Below, one piece after another: positions 1 to 64,000 of a DNA stretch of 64,000 nt. Origin of the DNA: an uncultured Actinomycetes bacterium. GTDB taxonomy: Bacteria; Actinomycetota; UBA4738; HRBIN12. The notes beneath the pieces were generated by a model. The model had not been told where the DNA came from, made no database searches, and was given only the letters and a program-made list of their open reading frames with translations. The stretch is from positions 34,522-98,521 of the forward strand of contig CAWHGC010000017.1 of the NCBI GenBank assembly GCA_963828885.1, read 5' to 3'. Numbering within the stretch: the first letter of the stretch is position 1; every line of letters starts with the position of its first letter. Both the position numbers and the translations under genes were made by a program.

Positions 1-26
1 CCTCGCACGCCGACGAGGACTGACCC

Positions 27-1141
27 TCAGGCCTCCGGCCGCGCGATGCGGACGTCGTGGCCGGCGCCGGGCGCGGCGAAGGCGAGCAGCCGCTGCGCCT
101 CCTCCAGCAGTGGCGCTGCGCTCGGCTCGCGGGATCGTGCGGAACGGCGTGACGACGAGCACGGCCGCGTCCTTCGAGCGCTCGACACGCCACGTGGCGG
201 CGATCGTGCCGTCGATCAGCACCATCAGGCTGCCGAGGTCGCGAACGATGCGCTGCCGGTGCTCGTCGGGGAAGACGCGGGTGCGGTCATCGTGCGCGAC
301 GAGGACGTTGTCGAACTCGGGCAGGAACCGCGGCGGCGCCGGCGTGTCCGGATCGGGCAGCGCGCCGTCCGGCACGTCGAAGAGCTCGCGGCCGCGCTCG
401 TCGCGGAACGTGCGGAGCTCGGGTCGCAGCCGATCGAGGATCTCCCGGACGCCGGTGAGGCCGGACCACGCCCGCACGTCGGGCGCGGTGGCGGGACCGA
501 ACGCCGCGAGGTAGCGCAGCACGAGGTCGTCGGGCAGCGCGTCGGCCTCGGGATCGCGGCCGAGCCAGTCGCGCACCGTCGCCCACACGACGCCTGCCCG
601 CTCGCGCCCCACACGCCGCGCGGCGGGATCTGGACGATCGGCACGATGAAGCGCACGGCGGTGGCGAGGGCGGCGGCGTCGACCGCGCGGCCATCGTTCC
701 CGGAGCGCCGCGCCGAGTGCGGCGGACGACCGCGGCTCCTCCTCGAGGAGTGCCCGCCCGGCGGCGGCCACGGCCTCGAGGTCGACGCCCGACGAGGAAC
801 CGTGCCCACGTCGCCGCCGCCGGACAGGAACCGCTCGAGGATCGGACGCACCGCCGGCCGCAGCTGCGAGGCAGTCGCTCGCCGTCACGAGGTGCAGCGT
901 CACCCGCATCAGCGACATCCGCACGACCTCGCGCGAGGTGATCATGCCGGCCAGCTCCTGCGGGTCGAAGCCCTCGAGCCGGCTCCACAGGCCGACGTAG
1001 GGAGCGTTCGGCACCTGCGCCTGCATGCCGACGAGCCGTTCGATCATGTCGCCGGCCGAGGCCGTCGTTCGCGCGTGCGAGCGACTGCCGCTCGAGCAGC
1101 GCTCGGTTCAGCTCGCGGGTGCTGAGGACGCGGTCGCTCAT
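27..1141 (-). pseudogene. Winged-helix DNA glycosylase-like protein of the AlkZ/YcaQ family (DUF1006), broken by at least 5 frame changes
   Basis: The N-terminus MSDRVLSTRELNRALLERQ is typical of the family. Conserved blocks (DMIERLVGMQAQVPNAPYVGLWSRLEGF, SREVVRMSLMRVTLHLV, LVLRYLAAFGPATAPDVRAWSGL, RFLPEFDNVLVAHDDR) are recovered only by switching among all three minus-strand frames. Confidence 0.55.
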
Positions 1142-1239
1142 CGCAGGGAGCGGTGATTCTCCCATCCGCCGAGCCGTCTGACAGGATGGATGTCGACGGC
1201 AACGATCGAACGGCCAGAAGAACGGAAGGACCCGACACG

Positions 1240-3953: not shown

Positions 3954-3972
<19 letters not shown>

Positions 3973-4543
3973 GCGGGCTCGGGGACCGGCGGGCGCGCCC
4001 GTTCCGGGCGCGGCGCTCGCTCCGGCCGGTGACCGAACGTGAGCCCCCGCACGAGCACCAGGAAGAACACGACCGCGCCCGTCACCAAGTAGGTCGCCCA
4101 CATCCACGGCCTCGTGGCGTCGCTGCCGGCGAAGATGCCGTGCAGCATCGACAGCGTGAACGTCGGGACGGCCAGCATGTGCAGCCGCCGCCACCACGGA
4201 TGCCGATCCGTCGCTTCGTCCACGAGGACGTCATCACGACGACCATCGCGTACATCGCGACCACGCCGATGCCGGTCGCGACCGGCCGGTACTCGGCACG
4301 GAGCGGCACCAGCAGGTCCGGCAGCCCGAACGGCATGAAGCTGTCGATCAGCAGACCGCCGAGGTGCACGCCCAGGAGCGCGAGTCCGACGGTGGCCACG
4401 AACTGGTGGAAGAGGATCGAGGTCGGCTTCGCCACGTGTTTCGTGACGAGCGAGGTGGTGGACACCAGCCCCCAGGCCACCGAGAGGAACAGCATCAGAT
4501 AGGCGCCGACGCCGGCCGCGCGCAGCACGATCCACGTGTTCAT
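3954..4543 (-). CDS. Ferric-reductase-like transmembrane protein (FRD/MsrQ-like), split by one frame change
   Basis: The N-terminal part MNTWIVLRAAGVGAYLMLFLS...HQFVATVGLALLGVH lies in ORF 4082..5425. The C-terminal TM part HMLAVPTFTLSMLHGIFAG...YLVTGAVVFFLVLV lies in ORF 3954..4535. The ATG at 4543 has a GGAGG Shine-Dalgarno sequence and overlaps the apbE stop (ATGA). Confidence 0.6.
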
Positions 4544-5425
4544 GCGGATGCCTCCGCGGCTCGGAGGTTCGTGCGAACGTCGCCGTCGGCGCGCACGAGG
4601 ACGACCGGGCCGGATCGCAGCGCGTCCTCGCCGGTGAGCAGCGCTCGCTTCGCGGCGATCTCGGCGAGCGCGCACGTCGGCGCCCACACGGTCGCCTGCA
4701 CGATGCCGGTGTCCGAGGGCGAGCCCGTCCTCGGGTCGATCAGGTGGTGGCGTCCGTCGCCCCACGCTCGCCGGGTCGTGCTCGAGGTCGCGATCGCACC
4801 GGCAGCCATCGACAGGCGCGCGAGACTCGTGTCGGGATCGTCGGGGTCCTCGACCTCGACGTCCACCGCTGGGGCGTCGCCGGCAAGGCGGAGGTCGCCG
4901 CCGGCGTTCACGAGCGCCCACGGCAGTCCCGCGGCGACGGCCGCGCCGGCCGCGAGGTCCACCGTCCACCCCTTCGCGACGCCGCCGAGGTCCAGGCCGA
5001 CGCCGGGCGGCAGACGCAGCTCGCGGCCCTCGAGGGAGACCTCGCGCCAGCGGCCGCAGGCGACCGGCGGCCGGAGCGCGCCACGCGCGCCGGCGATCAG
5101 CTCGTCGAAGTCCCGGTCGTAGCCGGCGGCCGTGACGGCCGCGAGCACCGTCGGGTCGAACAGGCCGCCGCTGTCGGCCGCGCGCTCGAGGGCGAACGCG
5201 AGCGAGCTCGGCGAACGGCGCCGACACCGTCGTCGACGAACCCGCCGACGCGTTCACCCACGAGAGCTCGCTGTCGGCGCGGAACCGCGAGTACCGGCGC
5301 TCCTCCCGCTCGAAGATCGTCTCCACTTCGCGGATCGCGAGGGACACGGCGACCGCGGGCGCCCGGTCGTCGTCGACGACGAGCGTCACGGAGGTGCCCA
5401 TCGCGCGGAAGGCGTGCCGCAGCAT
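4540..5425 (-). CDS. apbE: FAD:protein FMN transferase ApbE, split by one or two frame changes
   Basis: The N-terminus MLRHAFRAMGTSVTLVV is the ApbE signature start. The C-terminal 200 aa, with LDLGGVAKGWTVD and HHLIDPRTG, lie in ORF 4540..5148. The middle section is read in the wrong frame. Confidence 0.7.
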
Positions 5426-5751
5426 CAGGAGCCGCCCGTCGAGGTCGTGACGGGTGGCGCGGAGGTCGAGCCCCCGCCGCCCGCCGAGGTCGAAGACGAC
5501 GACCCCTGCGAGATCGTGATGGGCGCGGCGGGGGCGTCCGTGATGATCACGCGCCGCACGATCTTCTTCACGATCACCACAGGCCGTTGTCTCGGCCGGC
5601 GCGGTGACGTCTCGATCGAGGATGCCACCTTGGGCGCCGCACCGAAGATGCCGAGGCCGGTCAGGAACGTCGCGCCCCCGGCCACCCAGGCCACCGCACG
5701 GACGCGCCCCTTCGAGAGGCGCGTCCGCTTGCGGGGAGCGGTGTCAGTCAT
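5425..5751 (-). CDS. Small single-TM membrane protein with a Ser/Thr/Gly-rich tail
   Basis: MTDTAPRKRTRLSKGRVRAVAWVAGGATFLTGLGIFGAAPKV... Its start overlaps the stop of the upstream gene and its stop overlaps the apbE start. Confidence 0.4.
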   Translation of the reverse strand: MTDTAPRKRTRLSKGRVRAVAWVAGGATFLTGLGIFGAAPKVASSIETSPRRPRQRPVVIVKKIVRRVIITDAPAAPITISQGSSSSTSAGGGGSTSAPPVTTSTGGS

Positions 5752-6152
5752 CGACGCCGCCGGGGCCCGAGTTCTCCGAGCCGGGTCCGGAGTTGACCGA
5801 GCCGGGGCCCGAGTTGCCGTCGTCACCGTGGTCGTCGTTCGCGTCCTCGACCTCGACCCCGTCGTCACCGTGGTCGTCGAAGGCGTCGTGCAGGGCGCCG
5901 TCGTCGGTTCCGCCACCGGACGTCCCGTTCGACGTGTTCACGACGGCCCCGCCGTTGCCATCGCGCCTGCCGGTGGATCGTCACCGTGCGGGTCCGCGTC
6001 TTCACGATGGGCTTCGCCTTGGCCGCCGGTGCAGTGGTGCCGCTCGAGGCCTGGCCCGATGCCGGGCCGGATCCCGCCGCGACGGCGATGCCGCCCACCA
6101 CGAGTGCCGCCGTGAGTCCGAGCGCCATCAGAACCGCTGATCGCTTGTTCAT
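5744..6152 (-). CDS. Secreted acidic His/Asp-repeat protein, split by one frame change
   Basis: A signal peptide MNKRSAVLMALGLTAALVVGGIAVAAG follows a GGAGGA Shine-Dalgarno sequence. After a shift near 6000 the sequence continues as ...DDGALHDAFDDHGDDGVEVEDANDDHGDDGNSGPGSVNSGPGSENSGPGGVDD. The DNA shows three tandem GPGS-encoding repeats at 5761-5815. Confidence 0.5.
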
Positions 6153-8584: not shown

Positions 8585-10068
8585 ATGCCGAGTGCGCCGA
8601 ACGAGCCCACCACGTCCGCGCCGAAGGGCCACGGCCGCACCGTCCGGATCTTCCTCGCCATCACCGCGAGCCTGTCGTTGCTCGTGGGTGTCGCCGGCGG
8701 GATCAGCTATCGCGAGCTATAAGGCGGTGGAGGGCGAGGGCGTGAACGACGGAGTTCTACGATCCGGACCCCAGCGCCTCGCCCGGCGCGGATCGACCGA
8801 CCGGACCCTGCGTGAACAACGTCTGCAACTATCTGATCCTCGGCAGTGACTCTCGCCAGGGACTCACGCAAGAAGGAGCAGATCGAGTTCGGCACCAACG
8901 GCGACATCGGAGGCTCGAACCGCTCGGACACGATCATGCTCGTGCACACGCGATCCATCGCAGCAGAAGGCCGCGATCATCTCCTTCCCCCGTGACCTCT
9001 GGGTGAACATCCCGGGCGTCGGTGAGGACAAGATCAACGCCGCGTTCCAGGGAGGCGTCGACGGCGGCGGGCCGGAGCTGGTCGCGAAGACCGTGCACGA
9101 GATCACGGGACTGAGGATCAACCACTACGTCTACGTCGACCTCGCGGGGTTCCAGAACATCGTCGACACGCTCGGCGGCGTCCAGATGTGCATCCCGGCC
9201 GAGAACGTGAACACCCCCGGCTGGGTGCGATGGTCCCGACGGCCCGGTCTTCTACCACCAGCAGGGCTACATCGCCGACCCGTACACCGGGCTGCTCGTG
9301 AAGCCCGGCTGCCAGCTCCTCCACGGAGACCAGGCGCTGGCGTACGTCCGGACCCGGCACCTCAAGTGCGACGCGGTGCCCGACTTCGCCCGCATCAACC
9401 GGCAGCAGGAGTTCCTCCGCGCGGTCATCAACCGGTTGCTGCAGCCATCCGAGCTGATCAAGGCGCCCTCGCTCATCCGGCCGGTGCTCGGAAGCCTCAA
9501 GCGCGACGACAAGCTCACACCCGTCGATCTGGCGTTCCTCGTCAGCCAGCTCCAGGGGATGAGCACCGGCGCGGCGGAGTTCCGATCGGTCCCCGGCACC
9601 GTCGGGACCGAGCAGCCCTCGTGGTCGAGCATCCCGCTGTCGGTCGTGCACATGGATCCGTCGGCCGAGCAGATCTTCGCGGCGCTGCGCGACGGCAAGC
9701 CGCTGCCGAAGGCCGGGACGAGCCTCGAGGGCGTCGAGATGTCGGCGGCCAACATCACCGTGCCGGTCGTCGACCACGACTCCGCCGGCAAGGCGACGGG
9801 CGTCAACACCGTCCTCTCGGACGCCGGCTTCATCGCGCCGGGCATCACGGACTACGCGACCTACGGCGCCGACGTGAAGGGCTCGGTCATCGCGTACGAG
9901 CCCGGGCATGACGCGGAGGCGCAGGTCGTCGCGAAGTACTTCCCCGGCCTCAAGCTCGTGGAGACGCCGAAGGACGCGCTCCCCGGCACCGACGTGGCGG
10001 TCTTCGTGACGGCCGCCTACACCCCGCAGCAGCCCGGGAGCGGGCCCGGCACCACCACCTGCGCGTAG
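8585..10068 (+). CDS. LytR-CpsA-Psr (LCP) family cell-wall glycopolymer ligase, split by about 5 frame changes
   Basis: N-terminal TM segment MPSAPNEP...IFLAITASLSLLVGVAG. LCP core motifs NYLILGSDSRQ, SNRSDTIMLVH, ISFPRDLWVNIPGVGEDKINAAFQGG and LGGV are spread over three frames. The C-terminal LytR_C-like part is intact in ORF 9298..10068. Confidence 0.7.
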
Positions 10069-14260: not shown

Positions 14261-15608
14261 ATGCGCCGAGCCCTCCTCACCCTGTCGATCGCCGCCCTCG
14301 TCGCGGCCGCGTGCACGGACTCGGGCGCCGGCGGGCCGTCGTCGCCGTCCGTCGTCGGCGAGCCCGTCGGCCTCGCCACCCGCCCGCACCGGCGGCGGTC
14401 CCAAGCCGCAGGCCGTCGACGCCTCCGCCTTCCCGACCCGGTGGCCGATCAAGCACGTCATCTTCCTGATCAAGGAGAACCGAACGTTCGACAACCTCTT
14501 CGGGACGTTCCCCGGAGCGAACGGCGTCAGCACGGGCATGGACCACGGCGTGGAGCGCCCGCTGATCAAGGGCACGGACGGGCGCACGTACGACGACATC
14601 CCGCACTGCTACGAGTGCGCGCTGGCCGCGTGGGACGGCGGTCTGATGGACGGGTTCAACCAGAGCGAGTCCGCGGACCGGTGGGCGTACACCCAGCTGC
14701 ACCACGACCAGCTCCCGAACTACTGGCACTGGGCCAGCCACAACGTGCTGTTCGACAACTTCTTCGCGAGCGCGCAGGGGCCGTCGTTCCCGAACCACCT
14801 GTACGCGATCGCCGCCACGTCGGGCGGCACGCACGACAACCCCCGCCGCAAGCCGAGCCTCACGCACGGCTCGAACACGTTCGGCTGCGACGCGCCGGAC
14901 GAGCAGCTCGTCGAGGTCTACGACAGCGAGGGCAACGTGAAGATGGTGCCGCCCTGCTTCGACTTCGAGACCGAGGGCGACCTGTTGAACGGTGCCAACA
15001 TCCCGTGGTCGTACTACGCCGCCTCCGAACAAGAGAAGGGCTACATCTGGAGCGCGTACTCGGCGATCCGCCGATACCGCCTGCATCCGAAGCGCTGGCA
15101 GGCGCACATCCAGCCGGTCGACCGTGTGGTGAAGGACATCGGGGCCGGCGTCCTGCCGCCGGTCACGTGGATCACGCCCCGCTTCGAGGTCTCCGAGCAC
15201 CCCGAGTACAGCTTCTGCCACGGCGAGAACTTCTCCACGCAGGTGATCGACGCGGTCATGAACAGCGACATGTGGAAGGACACCGCGATCTTCGTGACGT
15301 GGGACGACTACGGCGGGTTCTACGACCACGTCCCGCCGCCGCAGGTGGACGACTTCGGTTTCGGCATCCGCGTGCCGCTGCTCGTGATCAGTCCGTACGC
15401 GGTCGACGGCAAGGTCTCGAGCGAGCTCGGCGAGTTCTCGAGCGTCCTGCGGTTCATCGAGGACAACTGGGGGCTCAACCAGCTCACGAAGCGGGACAAG
15501 GAGGCCACGCCCATGATGTCGGCGTTCAACTTCCACCAGGACCCGCGCCCGCCCGATCCGCTGCCGCTGCGCAAGGACTGCGTGGGCGTGCCGTTCGCGC
15601 AACCCTAG
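14261..15608 (+). CDS. Phosphoesterase family protein (phospholipase C / AcpA-like, PF04185), predicted lipoprotein, split by one frame change near 14395
   Basis: The lipobox signal [18 protein letters not shown] lies in frame A. The conserved core [22 protein letters not shown]... through to the C-terminus lies in ORF 14538..15608. The shift occurs in a cggcggcgg run. Confidence 0.7.
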
Positions 15609-17085: not shown

Positions 17086-18464
17086 ATGGCGGCGCGCGCG
17101 AAGGACCTGGCCCGCCGCGGGGTCGCCGCGCGACGCCGGCGCCGGGCGCAGGAGGCCCAGCGGAACCCGCGCATGGGGTTCTTCGCGCCGCTGCCGCCGG
17201 CGCCGACCGGCGTCGCCACGTACTCGCAGGCGGTGCTGGACGGGCTCCGGCCGGATCGGCTTCTTCGAACGGCACCGCATGGACGTGGAGTGGCCGCCGG
17301 AGCCGCGGCACGAGGGCCTCGTGCCCTGGTACCGGCTCGGCGTCTACTCGCTCGGGAACAACGTGCGCTTCCACCGCGACCTCTACCGCTTCGCGTGCGG
17401 CGCGCCGGGGCTGATCGTGCTGCACGACCTCGCGCTCGACGACTTCGTGCGCGGCATGAAGGTGGAGGGCGACCCGCTCGGGTTCGTCGCCGAGCGCGAG
17501 GCCGAGCGCCTGGCGCCGAACCTCCACTCCGAGGACGTGCTGCGCAACGAGCCGCTGCGCATGCCGTGGGCCGGCCACGTGCTGCGCCGCTCGCGCGGCG
17601 TCATCGTGCACAGCGACTTCGGCCGGCGCTACGTCGAGGAGCTCGGCTCGCGGACGCCGGTGTTCGTCGTGCCGCATCCGGTCGTCGAGTCCGACGCCGA
17701 CATGGAGCGCGCGCGGCGGCACGCGCCGGCGCTGCGGGCACCGCTCGAGGCCCGCGGCGCCCGCACGGTGATCGTCGCGCCCGGCGACCTGAACGAGGCG
17801 AAGCAGCTCGGCGCGCTCCTCGCCGCCGCACGGCTCCTGCCCGAGGACGTGCACGTGGTGATGGTCGGCCGGCGCATCGAGGGCTACGACGCCGACCGCG
17901 AGGTCGCGGCGAGCGGCCTGGGCGGGCGGGTGACGCTCGCGCCGGACGTGAGCGACGACGACTTCCGCGGGTGGCTGTGCGCGGCCGACGTCGCCGTCGA
18001 CCTTCGGTTCCCGCACCGCGGCGAGGTGAGCGGCTCGCTCGCGCGCGCGATGCAGGCCGGGCTGCCGGCCGTCGTCAGCGCCACCGGCACCTACCTCGAC
18101 GTGCCGGACGAGCTGGTGCTGCGGGTGGCGCCGGGTCCGACCGACCCGAGCGAGCTGGCGGCGCAGCTGCGGCTGCTGATCGACGACGAGGGCCTCCGCG
18201 TCCGGATGGGCGCGGCCGCGCGCGACCACGTCGAGGAGCGTGCGCGCCTCGGAGGCCACCGCGCACGGGTACGAGCGGGCGATCGTGGAGACCCTCCGCC
18301 TGGTCCGAGATCCCGTCCGGAAGGCCGAGGCCCGCTGGTCCGGCGCCCTCGCCGACATCGGCGTCGGCGAGCCCGAGGTCCGCGCCGGCTACGGCGTCGG
18401 GTACGCGCGGGCGCTCGAGAGCTTCCGGGGCGGAGCACCCGCGGGGCCGCCCGAATCGCCATAG
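17086..18464 (+). CDS. Glycosyltransferase family 4, split by two frame changes
   Basis: The N-terminus MGFFAPLPPAPTGVATYSQAVLDGL and most of the body lie in ORF 17279..18517. The C-terminal 70 aa lie in ORF 18240..18464. Confidence 0.6.
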
Positions 18465-21030: not shown

Positions 21031-21069
21031 GCCGGCCGAGAGCCGGCGGAGGCGGCCGACCTCGCCGTC

Positions 21070-26247: not shown

Positions 26248-26539
26248 GCTTGGCCATCTTCCGCTGGATCTCCTCGCGCTTGAGGCGGGCCTCCTCGCGC
26301 CGTTCCGCCTTCGTGATCCGGCGGTTCGGGTCCTCGCGTTCCGGCACGGATCGCTCCTGGGTCGTCGACGGGTGGGGCGCCTCGATGCGGTGCCCCGACG
26401 GCGACCAAGGATACGGGACGAGGGACCGGAAAGGTCGTTCGGGCCATTGCGGCCGAGGGGAGCGCTTCCTATCCTGTGCCTCGCCTTCCCCGATGGAACG
26501 GCGTGCCGGCGGCATCCCGCCGGCGAGGAGGGGGGGCGT

Positions 26540-41557: not shown

Positions 41558-41561
<4 letters not shown>
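41382..41561 (+). CDS. Trm112-family small zinc-ribbon protein
   Basis: LEILVCPNDRGEVEY...VIVCSTCGYRYPVRDGIPVML. Its ATG overlaps the pmm stop. Confidence 0.7.
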
Positions 41562-44742
<3,181 letters not shown>

Positions 44743-49333: not shown

Positions 49334-52040
<2,707 letters not shown>

Positions 52041-52045
52041 GGCCC

Positions 52046-52858
52046 GTCGCACTGTCGCCGTCCGACGTCGTCGCTGCGCTCCGGGCCGCCGGATGCGTGT
52101 TCGCCGAGGACGAGGCGCGGCTGCTGATGGCGGCGGCCGGGTCGCCGGCCGAGCTGGCCGCGATGGTCGACCGGCGGGTCGGCGGGCTTCCTCTCGAGCA
52201 CGTCCTCGGGTGGGCGGAGTTCTGCGGCGTGCGGATCGAGCTGGAGCCCGGAGTGTTCGTGCCGCGTCGCCGCTCGGAGTTCCTCGTCGCGGAGGCCGCG
52301 GCGATCGGGCCGGAGCGACGCGGTCGTCGTCGACCTGTGCTGCGGCTCCGGCGCGGTGGGTGCTGGCGCTGGCTGCGGCGCTGAACGGCGTCGAGCTCTA
52401 CGCCGTCGACGTCGACCCCGTGGCGGTGCGATGCGCGCGCCGCAACCTTCCGGGTGGTCGTGTGTTCGAGGGCGACCTGTACGAGCCGCTGCCGGCGTCG
52501 CTGCGGGGCCGTGTCGACGTGCTGGTCGCCAACGCGCCCTACGTGCCCACCGAGGCGGTCGGGCTGCTGCCTCCGGAGGCGCGCACGTACGAGCCGCGGG
52601 TGGCCCTCGACGGCGGCGCGGACGGGCTCGAGGTCGTGCGCCGGGTGGCGGCCGGCGCGGCGAGCTGGCTGACGCCGGGCGGTCACCTGCTGGTGGAGAC
52701 GAGCGCGGATCAGGCGCCGGCGGCAGCTGAGGCCTTCGTTCGTCGGCGGGCTCGTACCGCGGGTGGCGCGCTCGGAGGAGTTGGACGCCACCGTCGTCAT
52801 CGGGTCGAGGCCCGCCGAGCGGATCGGACCGTCGGGTCGGGTAGGCTTCCCGTCGTGA
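52046..52858 (+). CDS. PrmC/HemK-like protein N5-glutamine methyltransferase, split by about 3 frame changes; start uncertain
   Basis: DLCCGSGAVG (SAM motif I), LVANAPYVPTE (the NPPY-type motif) and LTPGGHLLVE. The C-terminus ...SEELDATVVIGSRPAERIGPSGRVGFPS ends at a TGA overlapping the prfB ATG. Confidence 0.55.
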
Positions 52859-54020: not shown

Positions 54021-56075
54021 ATGCCATCCACCGAGGAGGCGGTCCCCGAGGGGCCGCGGAGGCTGCACCTGCTCGTCGCCAGCTTCCTGATGCTCTTCGT
54101 GGAGCTGGCGCTGATCCGCGGCACGGCCGCCAACGTCGTCTACCTCACGTTCTTCACCAACTTCATCCTGCTCGCGAGCTTCCTGGGTATCGGTATCGGG
54201 TTCCTGCGGGCGCGCTCGCGCGACCGGTTCGAGTGGATGCCCGTGCTGCTGATCGCGGTCCTCGCGTTCGTCACGCTCGTGCCGGCCACGATCGGGTTCA
54301 CCGGCGGCGTGCCGCGGTTCGCGGGATTCGGCGGGGGATGGGCGGTGCCGGCCCAGGTCTCGTTGCCGGTGATCTTCCTGCTGACGACCGCCGTCATGGC
54401 CTGCATCGGTCAGCGCGTCGGGCCGGCTCTTCTCGTCGTTCGCACCGCTCGATGCGTACCGGCTCGACGTGCTCGGCAGCATCGCCGGCATCGTGACGTT
54501 CTCCGTGCTCTCGTTCCTGCACGCGGGCCCGGTCGTGTGGGGCGTCGTCGTCGTCGTGTGCTGCGCGTACCTGCTGGGGCGGCGGATGCCCCGGTGGACG
54601 CTCGCGAGCCTGGCGCTGCTCGGCGTGCTGCTGGCGCTCGTCTCGGCCGCACCGCGCGACGTCTGGTCGCCCTACTACCGCGTGACCGTCGCGCCGCCCA
54701 ACGCCGAGGGCCAGATCGCGATCCGCGTCAACGGCCGCCCGCACCAGACGATGGTGCCGGTCGAGGACCTGCTGACCGTGCGGCCGTTCTACGGCGCCCT
54801 GTACGGGCATCTGACGACGACGGCCGACGGCCTCGGCAACGTGGCCATCATCGGCGCGGGCAGCGGCAACGACGTGGCGCTCGCGCTCTCGAAGGGCGCC
54901 ACGCACGTGGACGCCGTGGAGATCGACCCGGTCATCCAGCAGCTCGGCGCGGAGATGCATCCGAGCCACCCGTACGACGACCCTCGGGTGACCGTGCACA
55001 TCGACGACGGCCGGGCGTTCCTGGAGCAGTCCGACGACGCGTACGACCTCGTGCTGTTCGCGCTGCCGGACTCGCTCACGCTCGTGTCGAGCACCGGCGC
55101 ACTGCGTCTGGAGAGCTACCTGTTCACCACCGAGTCGATCGAGGCGGTGAAGGCCCGTCTGCGACCGGACGGTGTGTTCGCCATGTACAACTTCTACCGG
55201 CCCGACGTCTTCGACCGGTACGCGGCCACGCTCGCGCAGGTGTTCGGCCATCCGCCGTGCCTCGATCTCGGGGAACCGGGAGCGGGCACCCGGCGCCAGG
55301 GCGTGCTCACGATCGGGCTGCAGGCCGATTCGGTCTCCTGCTCGACGCTGTGGCAGCCGTCCGCGACGACCCAGGAGCCCGCGACCGACGACCACCCGTT
55401 CCCGTACCTGCGCGGGCGGTCGATCCCCAACTACTACCTGATCGCGCTCGCGCGATCGTGCTGACCTCGCTCGTGCTGGTGCGCGTCGCCGGCGGTCCCC
55501 TCCGCGGTATGCGCAGCTACGTCGACCTGTTCTTCATGGGCGCGGCGTTCCTGCTGCTGGAGACGAAGAACGTCGTGCAGTTCGCGCTGCTCTTCGGCAC
55601 GACGTGGTTCGTGAACTCGCTGGTCTTCGCCGCGATCCTGCTGTCGGTGTACGCGGCCGTCGAGCTCGCGCGACACGTGCGCCTGCCGCGGCCGGGCGTC
55701 CTGTACCTGCTGCTGGCGGCGAGCCTCGTCGCTGGCGTACCTCGTGCAGCCCGACCAGCTGCTGGCGCTCGATCCGGTCGCGAGGTTCGCGGCGGCCGGG
55801 CTGGTCTCGTTCACGCCGGTGCTGCTGGCGAACCTCATCTTCGCGCAGCGGTTCAAGGACGTCGGCACCTCCACGGTGGCGTTCGCCGCCAACCTGCTGG
55901 GCGCGATGGTCGGGGGCGTCCTCGAGTACGGGGCCATCATCGTCGGGTACCGCGACCTGCTCCTCGTCGTGGCCGTGCTCTACGGGCTCGCGTTCGTGAC
56001 GGGCCGCCGGCACCTGCACCGGCCGCAGGACGCGGAGCCGATCCGCGCCTCGGAGCCGGCGACGGTCGCCAGTAG
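54021..56075 (+). CDS. Membrane-embedded spermidine-synthase-family protein (polyamine aminopropyltransferase-like core flanked by TM domains), split by several frame changes; 3' end approximate
   Basis: The N-terminal TM region lies in ORF 54021... The SpdS core VAIIGAGSGNDVALA...VEIDPVIQQL...DLVLFALPDS lies in ORF 54469..55464. The C-terminal TM region lies in ORFs 54021..56075 (tail) and 55744..56241. Confidence 0.55.
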   Translation: MPSTEEAVPEGPRRLHLLVASFLMLFVELALIRGTAANVVYLTFFTNFILLASFLGIGIGFLRARSRDRFEWMPVLLIAVLAFVTLVPATIGFTGGVPRFAGFGGGWAVPAQVSLPVIFLLTTAVMACIGQRVGPALLVVRTARCVPARRARQHRRHRDVLRALVPARGPGRVGRRRRRVLRVPAGAADAPVDAREPGAARRAAGARLGRTARRLVALLPRDRRAAQRRGPDRDPRQRPPAPDDGAGRGPADRAAVLRRPVRASDDDGRRPRQRGHHRRGQRQRRGARALEGRHARGRRGDRPGHPAARRGDASEPPVRRPSGDRAHRRRPGVPGAVRRRVRPRAVRAAGLAHARVEHRRTASGELPVHHRVDRGGEGPSATGRCVRHVQLLPARRLRPVRGHARAGVRPSAVPRSRGTGSGHPAPGRAHDRAAGRFGLLLDAVAAVRDDPGARDRRPPVPVPARAVDPQLLPDRARAIVLTSLVLVRVAGGPLRGMRSYVDLFFMGAAFLLLETKNVVQFALLFGTTWFVNSLVFAAILLSVYAAVELARHVRLPRPGVLYLLLAASLVAGVPRAARPAAGARSGREVRGGRAGLVHAGAAGEPHLRAAVQGRRHLHGGVRRQPAGRDGRGRPRVRGHHRRVPRPAPRRGRALRARVRDGPPAPAPAAGRGADPRLGAGDGRQ

Positions 56076-58557
56076 CCGCCCCCGAGCCCGGCTCCCGAGC
56101 AACGGCTCGCGATCTAGCGCAGAGCCCGTCCGCGACGCCGCCGGCGTTCGACGAACGCGCATCCGGCGAACGCCGCCCCCAAGCGCGAGCCAGACGACGG
56201 CGCTGACGGCGAGACCCCGCCCGATCGCGGGGTCGCGGTAGGTGAGCGCGACCTCGTGGTGGCCGGCGCCGACGGCGACGCCCTGCAGGAAGCCGTCGGC
56301 GGGGAGGACCTCGGCCGGCGCTCCGTCCACCGTCGCGCTCCAGCCCTCGTCGTAGCTGTTGCGGATCACGACGAGCGACGGCGCCGTCGCGTCGACGGCC
56401 ACGCGGACGTGCTCGGGGTCGGTCTCGGAGTACACGGCGTCGCCGGGCACCGCACCCGGCGACCTGGCGCGAGTCCCCGGGTCGCGTTCGACGACCGCGG
56501 TGCGGGCGGGGTCGAACCCGGGCTCCAGCACCTGCCGGAAGGCCTCGGCCTCCGAGTCCACCACCGTCCACGCGGGCACGGCCGAGGCGCGCGGCTCCCA
56601 GCCGTACACCTCCACGAGGTCGTAGCCCTGCGTGCTGACGACGACGCGACCGGCCACCGGCGGGTCGACGCCCTGCGGCACGATCAGGTAGCGGACGCCC
56701 ATCAGGCGGACGTCCTCGAGTGTCGGCTCGTTGATCACGCTCGCGTTGTAGAAGACCGACTGGTCGTCGGTGGCGCGTACGTAGGTCCAGTACCGGACGA
56801 GCTGCACGGGGTTGTAGCCCAGCACGTCGGGGATCGAGAACAGCGTGCCGCGGTTCATCATGAGCGCGGGCCAGTCGCGCGGCTGCTGCGCGTACAGGTA
56901 CCCCTTCTCGTAGAACGCGGCCGGCGGCACCCACGTCAGGTAGCGGCCCTGCTCGGCGGACTGGGCGCGGATCGTCTGCACGAACGCGTTCGGCCGCAGG
57001 AACTCGTCCTGCGGGACGTCGGGCCAGCGCAGCACCGGCGGCACGAGGTTCGCGTGGTCGCCGGTCTCCAGGCCGGTGAAGATCGTGCCGCCCTGCCACA
57101 CGTTCGCGTACACGGCGCTCGCCAGCAGTTCGACGGTGAGCACGCCGACCACGAGGGCCGGCGCCCAGCGCCACCTGCGCGCGAGCAGGACCAGCGCCGC
57201 CGCCGCCGCCGGTATGGCGATCGCCAGCAGCACGAATCGCATCGCGATGCCGCCGGCCGCCATCGGCAGCACGAGCAGGACGGCGGCGCCCACCGCCAGC
57301 CATCGCACCACCTGCCGCAGCTCCATCGGCCGGTCGCGCAGCCCCTGGATCCCGATCGCGCCGAGCGCCGGCAGCGCGATGAACGACAGGTACCGCAACC
57401 GCCCGGGGTTGTGCAGGTAGACGTCGCCGAACGGCAGCTTCAGCACGACGGCGCGGAACCACTCGGCCGTCACGAGCAGGTTCGTCATCAGCAGGTACGT
57501 GAGGGCGAACGACACGCCGAGCGCCCACACCGTCGCGCGCCGTGCCCGGTCGCGCCACGCGAAGGGGAGCGCCAGCAGCGTCACGGCGCCGAGGTACGCG
57601 CCCGGCGCCGTCCCGAACGCGAGCGGCCATCCCGCCCACATCCCGTTCGTCACGATCGGCCGCTCGCCGATGCCCGGCGTCTGCTTCAACGAGTCGACGG
57701 CGCTGTAGCCCGACTGCAGGCTCGACGTGCTGATGAAACCGAGCCGCGGGATCAGGATCGCGGCGGAGGCGAGCGGCAGGAACCCCAGGAACAGCGCGGC
57801 GGCGCCCAGCGCGCCGGGCCACGAGGTCTCGCCCAGCCGCACCGACTGGATCGCGTGCGACACGACGTACGCCGCAACCAGCAGCGTGCACATCATGAGG
57901 CCGTGGCTCATGTGCGCGTTCGCGACCTGCCACCAGGCGAACGCTGCGAGCGCCAGCCACGCGAGCTTGCGCGACCACAGGAGCGACTGCCGGTAGCCCG
58001 ACGCGCCGACGAGGACGATCGTCGTCCACGCCAGGAACCCGGCGAACGGCATCGAGATCGCCATCTCGCTCGTCGACATCGACATGCCGAGCGCCAGTCC
58101 GCCGACGGTCGCGGCCGCGCGCGACAGCGACTCCTTGCGCAGGAACCAATAGAGCCCGAGTCCGGCCACGCAGCGGGTTGAGGACGATGAGCGCCCGCAT
58201 CGCCGCGCCGGGGGACAGGAGCGTGAAGAGCAGCATGGCCGGCACGTAGAGCCAGCCGCTCTGCGGGTCGGCCGCGAACCGGTATCCCATCATCTCGTAG
58301 GGGTTCCACAGCGGGACGTGGCCGGCGACGAGGCTCCGCGCCAGGAACGTGAACCGCGGCAGCCAGAACGACAGGATGTCGAAGTGGTCGTTCGTCAGGT
58401 GCGGCGTGAACGCGAAGCCGCGGAGCGCGAACAGCACGCAGGCGACGATCAGCGCGGGGCCCGCGACGGCGGCGAGGATCCGGCGCGCGCGAGGCCGCTG
58501 ACCTGCGGGTTCCGGGTCGCGAGCGGTGGCCTCGGCCGCCTCGACGGCTGTGCTCAC
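55980..58557 (-). CDS. YfhO-family polytopic membrane protein (putative glycosyl- or lipid-transferase), split by one frame change near 58165
   Basis: The N-terminal 130 aa ([10 protein letters not shown]...[34 protein letters not shown]) lie in ORF 55534..58557. The remaining 729 aa lie in ORF 55980..58169. Confidence 0.65.
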
Positions 58558-58655: not shown

Positions 58656-59333
58656 ATGATCAGTCTTCAGCACGTCACGAAGGTCTACAAGAACAGCGTC
58701 GTCGCCCTCGAGGACGTCTCGGTCGACGTCGAGAAGGGCGAGTTCGTCTTCGTGGTCGGTCCGTCCGGGTCCGGCAAGTCGACCATGATCCGTCTCCTGA
58801 TGAAGGAGGAGGAGGCCACGAAGGGCGAGGTCTACGTGGCCGGGAAGAACCTCGAGAAGCTCACGAGCTGGAAGGTCCCGTACCTGCGCCGCAACATCGG
58901 CACCGTGTTCCAGGACTACAAGCTGCTGACCGACAAGACCGTGTTCGAGAACGTGGGGTTCGCCCTCGAGGTGATCGGCAAGCCGAAGCATGTGATCGAC
59001 CAGCGCGTGCCGGAGATCCTCGAGTACGTGGGCCTCGGCGACAAGCTGAACAGCTATCCGGACGAGCTGTCCGGCGGCGAGCAGCAGCGCGTGTCGATCG
59101 CGCGCGCCTGCGTGAACCGCCCGCTCGTGCTGCTGGCCGACGAACCCACGGGCAACCTCGACCCCAACACCAGCGTCGACATCATGCGGCTGCTCGACAA
59201 GGTGAACCGCATCGGCACCACGGTGGTGATGGCCACCCACGACCAGGCGATCGTCGACGCCATGCGCAAGCGCGTGGTGGAGCTCGACAAGGGCCGCGTG
59301 ATCCGCGACCAGGCCCGGGGCGTCTACAGCTGA
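58656..59333 (+). CDS. ftsE: Cell division ATP-binding protein FtsE
   Basis: Intact, with Walker [10 protein letters not shown], signature [14 protein letters not shown] and Walker [12 protein letters not shown]. Confidence 0.9.
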
Positions 59334-60237
59334 TGGCGCGTCTGGAGTACTTCCTCCGGGAGACCGCATCCGGTCTGCGCCGCAACGGCATCGTCGCCTT
59401 CGCCGCGATGTCGACGGCGTTCATCGCGCTGTTCCTGTTCGGCCTGTCGCTGCTGATCTACCGCGAGTTCAACCTGGTCATCGAGAACCTCACCGGCAAC
59501 GTCGAGGTGGCGGTGTACCTGACGGATCCGGTGAACGACAGACGGTCGTCCATCTCACCGACACGCTGCAGAAGCTGTCGGCGGTCGGCGACGTCGACGT
59601 ACGAGACGAAGGAGGAGGCGTGTGACAACTTCCATCGCCTCTTCCGGGCCAGCCGGGGTACGACCAGGTCGATTGCGACGTGATCCCGGCCTCGCTGCGC
59701 GTGAAGCTCGACGACACGGCGCAGTTCAGCCAGGTGACGGCGGCGCTCGGGTGCAGCGAGGACGCGAACGGCAAGCTCTCGTGCACCGAACCCGGCGTCG
59801 CGAACGTCGCCGACTACCGGGACCTCCTCGGCCGGCTGACGTCCATCACCCGCCTGCTCTCGTTGGGGGTGCTGGCGCTCGCCGCCGTCATGCTGATCTC
59901 GGCCGTGCTGCTGATCGCGAACACGCTGCGCATGGGGATGTTCAGCCGGCGCAAGGAGATCGGCATCATGCGCCTGGTCGGCGCCACGAACTGGCGGATC
60001 CGTGTCCCGTTCATGATCGAGGGCCTGGTGGAGAGCCTCGTCGGCGCGGCGCTCGCGATCCTCGCGCTGTTCGTCGTGAAGGTGACGGTGATCGACCCGC
60101 TGCGCGGCAAGGTGAAGTTCTTCCCGTTCGTGCAGAACACGGACCTGCTCGCCATCACGCCGTGGATCGTCATCGCGTCCGTCGCCATCGCGCTCGTCGC
60201 CGGCACGATCGGCATGCGCCGCTTCCTCGACGTCTAG
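59333..60237 (+). CDS. ftsX: Cell division permease FtsX, split by two frame changes near 59535 and 59650
   Basis: The N-terminal TM segment lies in ORF 59333... The C-terminal three TM segments (MRLVGATNWRIRVPFMIEG) lie in ORF 59680..60237. The ATG overlaps the ftsE stop. Confidence 0.75.
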
Positions 60238-60746: not shown

Positions 60747-62175
60747 ATGCGGGCCATGCCGGATCCCCATCCCGACGAGCTGCCCGAGGTGCTGGACCTG
60801 GCCGCCCGCGAGGCGGCCGCGTACCTCAAGGGGATCGCCGACCGGCCGGTGCGCGACCCTCGTGCGGACGAGGCCGCCGCCGCGTTCGGCGGATCGCTGC
60901 CCGAGCAGGGCGTCGGCGCCGTCGCCGCGCTCGAGGAGCTCGTCGCCGGGTTCGGCGCGGCCGTGCACTCGGCCGGGCCCAAGTTCTTCCACTTCGTGAA
61001 CGGCGGCACGACGCCGGCGGCCCTCGGCGCGGACTGGCTGACCTCGACGCTGGACCAGAACTCGGGCGCGTGGGTGGCGACGCCGCTCGCCGGGCGGCTG
61101 GAGCAGGTGGCCGTCGGGTGGCTGAAGGAGCTGTTCGGGCTCCCGCCGGCGTGGGGCGGCGTGCTGACGACGGGCGCCACGATGGCGAACTTCGTCGCGC
61201 TCGGGTGCGCCCGGCGCTGGGCGGGGCAGCGCCACGGCGTGGACGTCGACGATGCCGGGCTGTCGGGCCTGCCGCCGCTGCCGGTGTTCGGCAGCGGGTA
61301 CGTGCACCCGAGCGACGTGAAGGCGCTCGGCATGCTCGGCGTCGGGCGCGGGAACGTGCGGACCTTCACCCGCGACGACGTGGGCCGGCTGGACGCCGAC
61401 GGCCTCGAGGCGGCGCTGCGCGACCTCGACGGCGCGCCCTCGATCGTCATCGGGAGCGCCGGCGAGGTGAACGCGGGCGACTTCGACGACCTCGAGGTCA
61501 TGGCCGACCTCGCGGAGCGCTACGGCGCGTGGCTGCACGTGGACGGGGCCTTCGGCCTGTTCGCGGCCCTGTCGCCGCGCACGAGCCATCTGGTCGCCGG
61601 CGTCGACCGGGCCGACTCCGTCATCGCCGACGGCCACAAGTGGCTGAACGTCCCGTACGAGTCCGGCTTCGCGTTCGTGAAGGACGCCTCGCTGCTGCCG
61701 CAGGTGTTCGGCTCCGGCGCCGCGTACCTGCCCGACATCGACGACCCGATGCCGAACTGGGGCTACCTGGGTCCGGAGATGTCGCGGCGGGCGCGGTCGA
61801 TCCCGGTCTGGGCGACGCTGCGGGCGTACGGCCGCGAGGGCCACCGCGCCGTCGTGGAGCGCGACCTGGACCTCGCGCAGCACCTGGCCGGGGTGGTGGA
61901 CGCCGCGCCGGACCTCGAGCGGCTGGCGGAGGTGCCGCTCAACATCGTGTGCTTCCGGTACCGGCCCGAGGGCTCCCAGGACGGTCCCGAGCTCGACGAC
62001 CTGAACCGCCGGATCGGGGAGGAGGCCCTGAAGGACGGGCGCGTCTTCTTCGGCGCCACCCGGTACGGCGGCACGGACGGCCTTCCGCCCGGCGATGGTG
62101 AACTGGCGCACGAGGCCCGCCGACGTCGAGCTCGTGCCGCAGGTCGTGCGCGAGATCGGCGCGCGCCTGCGCTGA
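60747..62175 (+). CDS. Pyridoxal-phosphate-dependent decarboxylase (group II, DABA/glutamate decarboxylase-like), with a frame change near the C-terminus (about 62095)
   Basis: TTGATMANFVALGCARR, DGHKWLNVPYESGFAFV (PLP-lysine region). The last roughly 25 aa continue in another frame, ending ...VVREIGARLR with TGA at 62173-62175. Confidence 0.7.
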
Positions 62176-62707: not shown

Positions 62708-63367
62708 ATGGCGGAGTTCAGGGCCGTGATGCTCAACTGCACGCTGAAGTACTCGCCCGAGGTCTCCAACACCGAGGCGCTGATGCTGAAGGTGAAGGAC
62801 TGGTGGGACACCATGGACGTGGACACCGAGATCGTGCGGATCACCGACTACAACGTCCGCTTCGGCATCAGCTCCGACGAGGGCAACGGCGACGAGTGGC
62901 CGACGATCCTCGAGAAGATCAAGGCGGCCGACATCATCTGCATCGGCACGCCGATCTGGTTCGGCGTCCGGGGCTCGGTCGCGCAGCTCGTGATCGAGCG
63001 CCTGGACGGCACGTACAACGAGCGGAACGCGGCCGGGCAGTACCCGCTGTACAACAAGGTCGGCTGCGTCGTCGTGACCGGCAACGAGGACGGGGCGCAC
63101 GCGGCGGCCGAGACCACCCTGTTCAACCTCACGCACCTGGGCTGCGTGATCCCGCCGAACGCCGACACGTACTGGGTCGGCGACGCCGGCCCCGGTCCGA
63201 GCTACATCGAGGCCGGCGGCGACCAGCACCCCTACACGCAGCGCACGACCAGGTGGATGGCGCACAACGCCGTGCACATGGCGCGGATCCTGCGCGCGAC
63301 GCCGATCCCGGCCGAGGGCAACACGTTCGACGACGAGACCGACCACGGCCCCATGCACAACGGCTGA
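62708..63367 (+). CDS. NADPH-dependent FMN reductase / flavodoxin-like fold protein
   Basis: MAEFRAVMLNCTLKYSP...ADIICIGTPIWFGVRGS... flavodoxin-like motifs. Confidence 0.75.
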   Translation: MAEFRAVMLNCTLKYSPEVSNTEALMLKVKDWWDTMDVDTEIVRITDYNVRFGISSDEGNGDEWPTILEKIKAADIICIGTPIWFGVRGSVAQLVIERLDGTYNERNAAGQYPLYNKVGCVVVTGNEDGAHAAAETTLFNLTHLGCVIPPNADTYWVGDAGPGPSYIEAGGDQHPYTQRTTRWMAHNAVHMARILRATPIPAEGNTFDDETDHGPMHNG

Positions 63368-63373
63368 TCGGGC

Positions 63374-64000
63374 TCAGTCGACCGTGGAGATGCCCGGGTC
63401 CGCGCCCGGGTAGCGCGTGTCGCCGAACACCGAGAGGTCGGTGTCGGCGAGCGTCGCCAGGAACTCGGTCGCGAACACGGCGGCGAACTCGGCGTTGTCC
63501 AGGAGGTCGTGCTCGATCGCGTCGTCGTGGATGTACGGCCCGATGTTCTCGCCGTAGCGGTAGTCGCGCAGGAACGCGGCCACGTCGCCGCGCGTGATGC
63601 CCAGGTCGTCGAGCGCCTGTGCGTTCAGGTAGATCTCCGACGGCACCACGCTCTCGATCAGGCGGTAGCGGCCGCCGTGGAACCTCGCCTCGATGTCCTT
63701 GCCGAGCTCCGTCGGGTCCACGCGCGTGCCGTTCACGTCGTCGGGCAGCGGGCACTGGCCGTGGTCGGCCGCCACGATGAGGGCGTAGCCGCCCGGGCCG
63801 AACCGGTCCTCGAGCAGCGCGGCGACGCGCCCGAGCTGGGCGTCGACCTCGGCGAGGATCGTCTCCTCGCGCGGGTCGGCCATGTTGTAGATGTGCCCGG
63901 CGTAGTCGGGCGCCTTGAAGTTGATGAACAGCAGGCTGGGGTCCTCGCCGGTGCCGATCGGCTCGGAGTCGAACGCGGCCTCGATCAGATCGCCCTGGAA
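63374..64000 (-). CDS. Alkaline-phosphatase-superfamily (nucleotide pyrophosphatase/phosphodiesterase-like) protein; the C-terminal part only, since the gene runs off the window edge
   Basis: The frame continues upstream of the listed M (…INFKAPDYAGHIYNMADPREE…) to position 64000 without a stop. AP-superfamily motifs IVAADHGQCP. Confidence 0.55.
   Translation of the reverse strand, partial: FQGDLIEAAFDSEPIGTGEDPSLLFINFKAPDYAGHIYNMADPREETILAEVDAQLGRVAALLEDRFGPGGYALIVAADHGQCPLPDDVNGTRVDPTELGKDIEARFHGGRYRLIESVVPSEIYLNAQALDDLGITRGDVAAFLRDYRYGENIGPYIHDDAIEHDLLDNAEFAAVFATEFLATLADTDLSVFGDTRYPGADPGISTVD

Follow-up and report, generated by a model that had tools for sequence, protein, structure and literature searches.

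The window analysed here, a stretch of 64,000 nt from an uncultured Actinomycetes bacterium, has a G+C content of 72%, as a consequence of which spurious ORFs abound in it. Frameshift-aware alignment against same-species contigs and 80 related loci located ~56 frame-changing indels in 22 ORFs (Table 1), set among ~30 neighbouring genes that are intact, including acnA, ahcY, the ALS-like gene and a GT2 fusion that measures 1029 aa from its real start. An earlier note on the same DNA had described conserved genes that could be read only by hopping frames, as well as the intactness of these four neighbours. All 22 items on its list of broken genes were verified by homology (tblastn, DNA and frameshift-aware alignment, and Pfam), and its estimates of the number of shifts held or proved conservative, with seven in the alkZ-like gene (given as at least five), five in LCP (about five) and three each in secA and spoIID (about three).

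For tblastn of the window, 978 ORF products from the 80 related loci served as queries, and the frame discontinuities drew support from up to 61 independent references. DNA alignment used same-species contigs at 93–96% nucleotide identity, against which single-base indels could be pinpointed, and the indel positions were concordant between gene-by-gene tblastn, frameshift-aware protein-to-DNA alignment and Pfam. Under lenient gap penalties, diverged stretches acquired false insertion/deletion pairs that compensated each other, and indels were called from stricter penalties together with protein-level frameshift-aware alignment. A GC3 frame plot with a six-state Viterbi coding path was retained as a guide only; as sole evidence the path was rejected, the phase changes that it flagged being mostly ordinary gene boundaries, and its placement of 51895–52349 on the minus strand was a mis-assignment.

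Table 1. Genes of the window interrupted by frame-changing indels. Positions are those of the window; L-numbers denote related loci used as references; +1 and −1 are shifts by insertion and deletion, and a letter after the plus sign is the inserted base.
Gene	Position	Strand	Frame-changing indels	Evidence
alkZ-like	30..1141	−	7 insertion-type shifts: ~114-118, 589-590 (+2), 685, 791, 809-812, 865, 1075-1077	DNA alignment to L081, L085
ApbE / ferric-reductase-like fusion ORF	3972..5425	−	5197 (+1), 4749 (−1), 4198 (−1)	tblastn and frameshift-aware alignment; reference L083 ApbE, 508 aa
Small hypothetical gene (homologous to L083 hyp144, L085 hyp137)	5747..6152	−	one +1 at ~5960	tblastn and frameshift-aware alignment
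LytR_cpsA_psr (LCP)	8597..9489	+	five +1: 8711, 8760, 8869, 8951, 9228	frameshift-aware alignment to L083 LCP, tblastn, Pfam
Phosphoesterase (PLC-family) lipoprotein gene	14261..15608	+	one +1 at ~14351	three-frame reading; frameshift-aware alignment to L085 PLC, 92% identity
Third GT4 glycosyltransferase	17086..18464	+	two +1: ~17250, ~18240 (phases 0 to 1 to 2)	
wzt (ABC transporter ATPase with Wzt_C)	19437..20599	+	20221 (+A), 20358 (+A)	DNA alignment to L088
wbbL-like GT2	21025..21901	+	up to 4: 21038 (−1), 21047 (−1), 21141 (+C), 21896 (+C)	DNA alignment, tblastn, frameshift-aware alignment
Second NTP-transferase (manC-like, manC2)	21899..22918	+	insertions 22093, 22123, 22188	DNA and frameshift-aware alignment
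spoIID-domain gene	22989..24704	+	23381 (+A), 23660 (+G), 24437 (+C)	DNA alignment, tblastn
DUF3105 gene a	24711..25338	−	insertions 24749, 24937, 25067, 25232	DNA and frameshift-aware alignment
DUF3105 gene b	25524..26347	−	one deletion, 26003	DNA alignment, tblastn, frameshift-aware alignment
fbiC (FO synthase)	30076..32560	+	one insertion, 30373 (+G); 827 aa once deleted	DNA alignment
Small Lys/Ala-repeat (KA-repeat) gene	33020..33429	+	one +1 at 33047-33048	same position against L086 and L088
pmm (phosphomannomutase)	40028..41382	+	40448 (+G), 41211 (+A); 450 aa once deleted	DNA alignment, tblastn
SIS / bact-PGI_C (pgi/manA-like)	41558..42623	+	one insertion, 41779 (+C); 354 aa once deleted	DNA alignment, tblastn
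secA	49334..52040	+	51409 (+G), 51532 (+A), net +2 at ~51917-51927	tblastn, DNA and frameshift-aware alignment
MTS methyltransferase (prmC-like)	52049..52813	+	insertions 52319, 52366, 52742	DNA alignment, tblastn, frameshift-aware alignment
Spermine_synth-domain membrane protein (SpdS-like)	54021..56075	+	54424 (+1), 55452 (−1), 55732 (+1)	tblastn, DNA and frameshift-aware alignment
yfhO-like	56129..58557	−	58169 (+C), ~56189	tblastn (44 references), DNA and frameshift-aware alignment
ftsX	59333..60237	+	59534 (−1), 59595 (+1), 59646 (−1)	tblastn, DNA and frameshift-aware alignment; 94% identity once corrected
PLP-dependent decarboxylase	60747..62175	+	one insertion, 62073 (+A)	tblastn, DNA alignment

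Reading frames and indel context

The alkZ-like gene is an intact 368 aa in both L081 and L085, and the window copy, once corrected, aligns at 88% identity in frameshift-aware alignment. apbE and a ferric-reductase-like gene had been listed as two broken genes; both are indeed broken, but they belong to a single fusion ORF, which has three shifts, in which positions 1–57 and 61–205 of the Pfam ApbE profile are matched in different frames and for which Pfam also returns a weak Ferric_reduct match. The small hypothetical gene at 5747–6152, with its one shift, brings the number of ORFs to 22. Three-frame reading and frameshift-aware alignment to L085 confirmed that the PLC-family gene is broken, by a shift that separates the signal peptide from the mature domain and that lies upstream of the interval first proposed for it (14390–14400). 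An intact reading of this gene, from a single-frame tblastn match with a net indel of +60, was abandoned, the signal peptide having been found in another frame. In phase 0, the N-terminal 51 residues of the third GT4 correspond to the beginning of the gene in L085, and the Glycos_transf_1 domain lies in phase 1, the second shift in this gene being placed from frame reading and the GC3 coding path only. Matches to wzt were returned by tblastn in three frames at 96–100% identity; the insertions in manC2 total +3 and leave ~30 aa scrambled; that in the KA-repeat gene falls nine codons past the start; and the zinc-finger tail of SecA [14 protein letters not shown] is encoded in a third frame. The insertion in the PLP-dependent decarboxylase lengthens the ORF, to 514 aa against 475 aa in relatives. 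As read, the N-terminal segment of LCP contains stops, for which frameshift-aware alignment accounts. An indel suspected in the tmRNA from its short tag, ADNYALAA, was dismissed, the tags of relatives being equally short.

Insertions far outnumber deletions, a direction bias that fits an artefact: well-localised events comprise 33 insertions against 5 deletions (p = 4 × 10−6), and 48 of all 56 events are insertions (86%), the other 8 being deletions. The composition of the inserted bases mirrors that of the window, the inserted base differs from both of its neighbours at 23 of 29 well-localised sites, and the longest run that holds an inserted base is 3 nt. The shifts had been thought to sit in short G/C or cggcgg runs, and a tabulation against homopolymer context had been proposed; this expectation failed, as the insertions avoid homopolymers and none of 84 runs of at least 5 bases is affected.

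One further shift, absent from the earlier list, is of another kind. prfB carries a genuine programmed +1 frameshift at 52921 (CTT TGA C), the basis of RF2 autoregulation; no indel separates the window from the close relative L087 across this gene, and the gene call in L087 is split in the same way. This conserved site stands alone and has a defined slippery/stop motif, whereas the other ~56 shifts are motif-less and unconserved. Its presence gives some purchase to the idea of biological recoding, under which programmed ribosomal frameshifting, transcriptional slippage or RNA editing would allow the cell to tolerate the extra bases. Insect endosymbionts offer a precedent, in that transcriptional slippage at poly(A) tracts rescues their frameshifted genes and, as in the window, a living bacterium has essential genes that appear frameshifted. 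Slippage of that type needs long homopolymer tracts, however, and no site in the window lies in a run of at least 4 bases. The sites have neither slippery or homopolymer context nor a common motif, their positions are conserved in no relative among the 80 loci, same-species genomes do not have the extra bases and up to seven events fall in one gene, all of which leaves recoding with a negligible chance of explaining them.

Relatives, selection and the public deposit

In DNA alignments the window is the odd one out: the genes are intact in L081, L082, L084–L086 and L088 (93–96% nucleotide identity) and in L087 (89%), and the lesions appear as single extra bases between flanks that are 95–96% identical. 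Five other assemblies, from the same species or a sister population (GCA_047520425.1, GCA_047520465.1, GCA_047520485.1, JGI 3300046674 and JGI 3300066662), have all of these genes called at full length. Deleting the extra bases restores exactly the reference lengths of PMM (450 aa), the PGI-like protein (354 aa, as in 5 cluster mates) and FbiC (827 aa, as in 6 cluster mates from 6 contigs). For SecA and FtsX the reference lengths are about 900 aa and 301 aa.

Across 22.4 kb of broken genes, no internal stops were found after frame correction and no larger deletions, the only indels being of 1–2 nt. Differences from the references fall at codon position 3 in 68% of cases in broken genes vs 74% in intact genes, and the corrected proteins are 87–96% identical to their references, with the exception of ApbE, hyp144 and LCP (64–73%), for which the only reference is L083, an 86%-level relative. 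Judged by this pattern of divergence, the affected genes are otherwise under purifying selection.

These data bear on whether the genome itself is degrading, an alternative that the earlier note had left standing and that would entail genuine, very recent mass pseudogenisation, either in a decaying or dead lineage or in an insertion-biased hypermutator clone. Reductive decay of the Mycobacterium leprae type produces pseudogenes en masse and, as in the window, interrupts many conserved actinobacterial genes. The indels are present in the deposited sequence, and they cluster in some accessory or strain-variable genes (alkZ-like, apbE, LCP and the polysaccharide genes at 20–26 kb), two of these segments being missing from sister strains. 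Unlike such decay, the window combines an absence of nonsense codons and larger deletions with a third-position bias that is intact and a codon-position pattern that is not relaxed, and essential or near-essential genes are affected repeatedly (three lesions in secA, three in ftsX and two in pmm) while sister strains, and five of five independent assemblies, are intact. The excess of insertions is also the opposite of the deletional bias that bacterial mutation reportedly shows, in work of Mira, Ochman and Moran, and, within the lineage, it is Nanopore bins alone that carry identical lesion types, at idiosyncratic positions (see below). Neither mixed lesion types, nor deletion bias, nor relaxed constraint, nor sparing of essential genes was found here, and we regard a degrading genome as very unlikely. 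At a finer scale, apbE and LCP, two of the genes densest in lesions, sit in segments missing from some same-species contigs, and part of the lesions in the alkZ-like gene, apbE and LCP may be genuine strain-specific pseudogenes.

Five products specific to the frameshifts are exact public gene calls from one 171,399-bp NCBI+ENA contig, namely the truncated SecA (758 aa) and FbiC (721 aa), the PGI-like fragment (275 aa), the 3′ ORF of pmm (373 aa) and the lengthened PLP-dependent decarboxylase (514 aa), while neither PMM nor the PGI-like protein occurs in repaired form in the public protein collection. Because the truncated products are exact gene calls of the deposited contig, the window was not perturbed after deposit. 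Synthetic random insertion into real sequence, which the earlier note had also entertained, would be in keeping with insertions that look random, with background-like composition, avoided homopolymers and clean flanks; it is refuted outright at the five sites by the matching gene calls, and the occurrence of the same lesion type in other public long-read bins leaves deliberate perturbation with next to no credence elsewhere in the window.

Association with long-read assembly

Across 33 Nanopore 'MFD contig_N' loci (728 kb), 28 frameshifts are strongly supported, vs none across 47 short-read loci (660 kb); the window has 6 such events in 23.5 kb, a density greatly in excess of the short-read background. 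Those in the MFD loci have the same +1 bias as the window (22:6) and, at base level, the lesions of MFD bins are likewise non-homopolymer single-base insertions. secA is also broken in L014, L043, L055 and L060, at other positions, and the density of events in the window, ~0.9 per kb, is similar to that of L041, the worst of the related long-read bins, where 22 kb contain 9 events. Only Nanopore reads went into the MFD long-read catalogue, for which Flye was the assembler and Medaka polishing was run once; Nanopore-associated errors in MAGs of lower coverage are a caveat raised by the authors (PMC12313526). Frameshift errors are also commoner in ONT soil assemblies than in HiFi assemblies (PMC13087279). 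We found no description of this non-homopolymer insertion mode in the literature. The errors of Nanopore-only MAGs (truncated proteins of the IDEEL type, MFD pipeline) nonetheless resemble those of the window, in that single-base indels break conserved genes at idiosyncratic positions and are without counterpart in short-read assemblies of the lineage. Classic Nanopore error consists of deletions in long homopolymers, whereas insertions dominate in the window and avoid homopolymers; concentration in homopolymers is absent from the window and the related Nanopore bins alike, and is not a defining feature of the artefact in this lineage and pipeline.

The lesions are thus present in the deposit, unique to this contig, insertion-biased and outside homopolymers, and of a type restricted, within the lineage, to long-read bins. 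We conclude, with a probability of roughly 0.88, that the discontinuities in frame stem from consensus errors left uncorrected in a long-read metagenome assembly, most probably a Nanopore-only Flye assembly with a single Medaka polish. Assembly indel error had been named as the likeliest cause from the outset, and that judgement is upheld by lesions unique to the contig, by the lack of other decay and by the confinement of the same lesion type to Nanopore-only bins. The long-read origin of the contig itself is inferred from its 171-kb size, from an NCBI+ENA provenance shared with the MFD bins and from the error signature. An uncultured 72% G+C soil actinobacterium would have been assembled from long reads, probably Nanopore, at modest or locally fluctuating coverage, and the deposited consensus would have gained ~48 spurious bases and lost ~8, or ~0.9 per kb of coding sequence, with errors falling in kilobase-scale patches, perhaps where coverage dipped over the length of a read or where segments vary between strains. 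In the true genome, secA, ftsX, pmm and the other genes are almost certainly intact.

Against this reading stand a signature unlike the textbook homopolymer deletion of Nanopore data and a strong clustering of events, which is not expected of a uniform error process. Indels in the window are overdispersed (variance/mean 2.6 per 2 kb, P about 5 × 10−5), with one clean gap of 9.6 kb, and are patchy at the kilobase scale, including the polysaccharide cluster at 20–26 kb; local divergence from the references does not explain where the hot-spots lie. Patchiness of this kind might betray an artefact with a biological trigger, in which DNA base modification or co-assembled strain mixtures derail basecalling or consensus in kilobase patches, and the recurrence of the artefact in many bins of a high-GC lineage points the same way, as does a weak enrichment of TCG directly upstream of insertions (6 of 29 vs 1.2 expected, uncorrected p = 0.001). 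The TCG signal, however, fails correction for ~128 tests; TCGA, GATC, CGCG and GTCG are not significant at insertion sites, and CGAC is nominal only (p = 0.03, uncorrected). Pooled insertion contexts from the MFD bins likewise have no common motif, and none shared with the window sites, and mismatches are no denser around the insertions than away from them. We consider such a trigger very unlikely, and equally so the more specific proposal that the insertions are non-random because patchy base modification or co-existing micro-diverse strains systematically cause an extra base to be added in Nanopore basecalling or consensus. If true, either modification or strain heterogeneity would account for the kilobase patchiness and the weak TCG context, and its distribution would be mapped indirectly by the 'errors'.

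For the biology of the organism the residual consensus errors matter little, as secA, ftsX, pmm and the others are almost certainly normal in the living cell. For users of the data, the public contig encodes ~22 falsely split or truncated proteins, and the same defect is found in related long-read bins. Homopolymer-aware polishing or filtering would miss these errors, because the insertions lie outside homopolymers, and such bins must first be corrected with the help of a reference or by a frameshift-aware method, or be polished with short reads, if they are to serve for counting pseudogenes, building pangenomes, reconstructing metabolism or training sequence models. Some of the false products already stand in protein databases as singleton clusters, among them SecA at 758 aa and a PMM fragment of 373 aa.

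Frame breaks in conserved genes

At a G+C content of 72%, the 64-kb window contains long ORFs in every frame (227 reach 100 aa or more), so apparent frame hops have to be backed by homology; a GC3 frame plot with a six-state Viterbi coding path served as a guide only. The source is an uncultured soil actinobacterium: all 80 of the closest loci in a species-representative genome collection came from MAGs labelled Actinomycetota or Actinomycetes, and cluster mates of window proteins are named Gaiellales or Solirubrobacterales. Using tblastn, 978 ORF products of 80 related loci (L-numbers) were searched against the window and colinear HSP pairs in different frames were scored, a frameshift being termed strongly supported when at least 12 independent references agreed. 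Base-level mapping used same-species contigs from other assemblies (L081, L082, L084/L086, L085 and L088; 93–96% nucleotide identity) and L087 (89%).

Apart from the sequence context of the shifts, the earlier note's claim of pervasive frame discontinuities in about 25 conserved genes is confirmed by tblastn, DNA alignment, frameshift-aware alignment and Pfam. The gene-by-gene tblastn table, combined with a purpose-written frameshift-aware protein-to-DNA alignment, gave ~56 frame-changing events in 22 ORFs, with per-gene counts (seven in the alkZ-like gene, five in LCP, three each in secA and spoIID) close to those first proposed. Frame breaks were supported by 61 independent references at ~51.92 kb in secA, 44 at 58.17 kb in yfhO, and 28–35 in pmm and the PGI-like (SIS/bact-PGI_C) gene. 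By frame reading, secA spans three successive frames, with its 14-letter zinc-finger tail in yet another, while Pfam placed ApbE profile positions 1–57 and 61–205 in different frames and showed the 'FRD-like' piece to be the C-terminal, ferric-reductase-like portion of the same ApbE fusion ORF. Against the same-species contigs, nearly all frame-changing coding differences were single extra window bases with clean flanks, and removing them restored PMM (450 aa), PGI-like (354 aa) and FbiC (827 aa) proteins to exact reference lengths. About 30 genes were full length in a single frame in the tblastn table, including the four that the note had called intact: acnA, ahcY, the ALS-like gene and the GT2 glycosyltransferase fusion.

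The fbiC insertion is the sole lesion in an F420 biosynthesis cluster of F420 ligase (cofE-like), cofD and fbiC. In a small Lys/Ala-rich repeat gene, a +1 insertion is accompanied by in-frame differences in repeat number from L088 (+12, +42 and +3 nt).

Coordinates of lesions and other features (window positions unless an L-numbered locus is named)
Feature	Position	Detail
fbiC insertion	30373	+G; DNA alignment to same-species contigs
pmm insertions	40448, 41211	+G, +A; DNA alignment to same-species contigs
PGI-like insertion	41779	+C; DNA alignment to same-species contigs
secA insertions	51409, 51532	+G, +A; DNA alignment
wzt insertions	20221, 20358	DNA alignment
manC2 (second manC-like gene) insertions		three; DNA alignment
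spoIID insertions		three; DNA alignment
DUF3105_a (first DUF3105 gene) insertions		four; DNA alignment
yfhO insertion	58169	DNA alignment
PLP-decarboxylase insertion	62073	DNA alignment
TCG sites (examples)	20221, 21896, 24749, 25232, 51532, 55732	
Hot patches	0–1.2, 4–6, 8.6–9.3, 20–26.5, 51.4–59.7 kb	
Cold stretches (among others)	acnA; 9.3–14.3, 26.5–30.3, 33.1–40.4 kb	
Intergenic single-base indels	1219, 26501, 33439, 46782, 47532	vs same-species contigs
Intergenic single-base deletions	22920, 39190–39629, 45388, 45400	vs same-species contigs
ApbE/ferric-reductase segment	~4026–5700	
LCP segment	~8464–10073	
F420 cluster	27950–32560	
Lys/Ala-rich repeats	33188–33300	+1 insertion at 33047
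prfB (RF2)	52857–53971	recoding site 52921
raiA RNA motif	46131–46359 (+)	
HPF/RaiA gene	46422–46757	Ribosomal_S30AE
tmRNA	62246–62596 (+)	
MFD frameshift sites (incl. in secA)	L014 13302; L043 12081; L055 12072; L060 12376, 13869	
MFD insertion examples	L035 18763, L041 21263, L060 12376	+A, +A, +C; base-level alignment

Probable assembly error and its rivals

We consider the frame-changing indels to be assembly indel error, the note's leading interpretation, rather than a real biological feature, with a probability of roughly 0.9, as supported by intact relatives, clean lesions, insertion bias, lesions in essential genes and a link to sequencing platform. All independent assemblies of the same or sister population carry these genes intact, and cluster mates include six FbiC proteins of 827 aa and five PGI-like proteins of 354 aa. 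Isolated indels are the sole lesions in the broken genes: across 22.4 kb of frame-corrected sequence there are no internal stop codons, and 68% of differences fall at codon position 3 (vs 74% in intact genes), with shares of 0.89 in Wzt, 0.83 in PMM and 0.82 in FbiC. Corrected proteins are 87–96% identical to same-species or sister references, and 64–73% for ApbE, LCP and hyp144 (a hypothetical protein with its homologue at 5747–6152), for which the sole reference is the more distant L083. Well-localised events comprise 33 insertions against 5 deletions (p = 4e-6), and the full set 48 against 8, with inserted-base composition close to background, and essential genes were struck repeatedly (secA and ftsX three times each, pmm twice). 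The pattern is not one of genome decay, which the note had offered as an alternative, as it shows no mixture of lesion types, deletion bias or relaxed constraint; a genuine pseudogene component is conceivable in the alkZ-like gene, apbE or LCP.

Deliberate perturbation of the sequence was also suggested. By exact-sequence look-up, five frameshift-specific products (SecA, 758 aa; FbiC 3' ORF, 721 aa; PGI-like fragment, 275 aa; PMM 3' ORF, 373 aa; extended PLP-decarboxylase, 514 aa) are public gene calls of a single 171,399-bp contig at NCBI and ENA, and therefore alteration after deposition is refuted for the sites tested; the same look-up did not find the repaired PMM and PGI-like proteins in the protein collection. 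Nor are the window sites cases of programmed frameshifting or transcriptional slippage: motif, conservation and homopolymer tract are all lacking. Only one frame change in the window is genuine recoding; missing from the note's list, it is in prfB, where a canonical programmed +1 site (CTT TGA C) separates an N-terminus in phase 0 from the remainder in phase 1, with no indel relative to close relative L087, whose gene call is equally split.

Single-base indels also occur in intergenic DNA. Intergenic errors are inseparable from natural variation, and thus the true error count is probably above the 56 coding events.

Context, clustering and sequencing platform

The lesions are of the same familiar kind as the gene-fragmenting indel artefacts of noisy long-read MAGs, and we infer a long-read origin for this contig. 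They differ from the textbook form in that non-homopolymer insertions dominate: 23 of 29 well-localised inserted bases are unlike both neighbours, against a background of 59%, and all 84 window runs of at least five bases are untouched, contradicting the proposal that shifts sit in G/C or homopolymer runs. No shared sequence motif was found at insertion sites in the window or in MFD loci (from Nanopore-only long-read bins); TCG lies directly upstream of the inserted base at 6 of 29 sites (1.2 expected, uncorrected p = 0.001), an enrichment that was not significant after multiple-test correction and not evident in MFD loci.

Events are clustered (variance-to-mean ratio per 2 kb of 2.6, P ~5e-5), the longest event-free stretch being 9.6 kb (41779–51409, P ~0.01). 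Such kilobase-scale patches would fit low-coverage fluctuation on the scale of read length, or strain-variable segments; local divergence from the references did not account for hot-patch locations. The ApbE/ferric-reductase segment is missing in same-species L081, L082 and L085 and present in 86%-level L083, and the LCP segment is missing in L085; both are strain-variable islands and rank with the patches richest in errors.

Strongly supported frameshifts numbered 28 in 33 'MFD...contig_N' loci (728 kb) vs none in 47 short-read loci (660 kb), and share the +1 bias (22:6). Nine events fall within 22 kb of L041, and in L014, L043, L055 and L060 frameshifts disrupt secA at positions other than those in the window. 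At base level these are, as in the window, non-homopolymer single-base insertions with flanks 95–97% identical; classic homopolymer deletions are occasional. Built from Nanopore reads alone, the MFD long-read catalogue was assembled with Flye and given one round of Medaka polishing; its authors report that lower-coverage MAGs carry Nanopore-associated errors (PMC12313526). The frameshifts in the MFD loci look like a quality problem of the whole catalogue, affecting high-GC bins of low coverage. Their value is as a practical warning: through the window contig and related long-read bins, truncated artefacts have entered protein databases, and polishing aimed at homopolymers would not catch them.

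RNA elements

Directly 5' of the HPF/RaiA gene is a raiA RNA motif at full length (Rfam RF03072, 151 bits). The tmRNA encodes an unusually short tag peptide, ADNYALAA, but relatives' tags are also of 8–9 residues (ANDNYALAA, AEDNYALAA, ANEEYALAA, and ADNYALAA itself in related locus L007), which rules out an indel artefact and identifies the short tag as a lineage trait.
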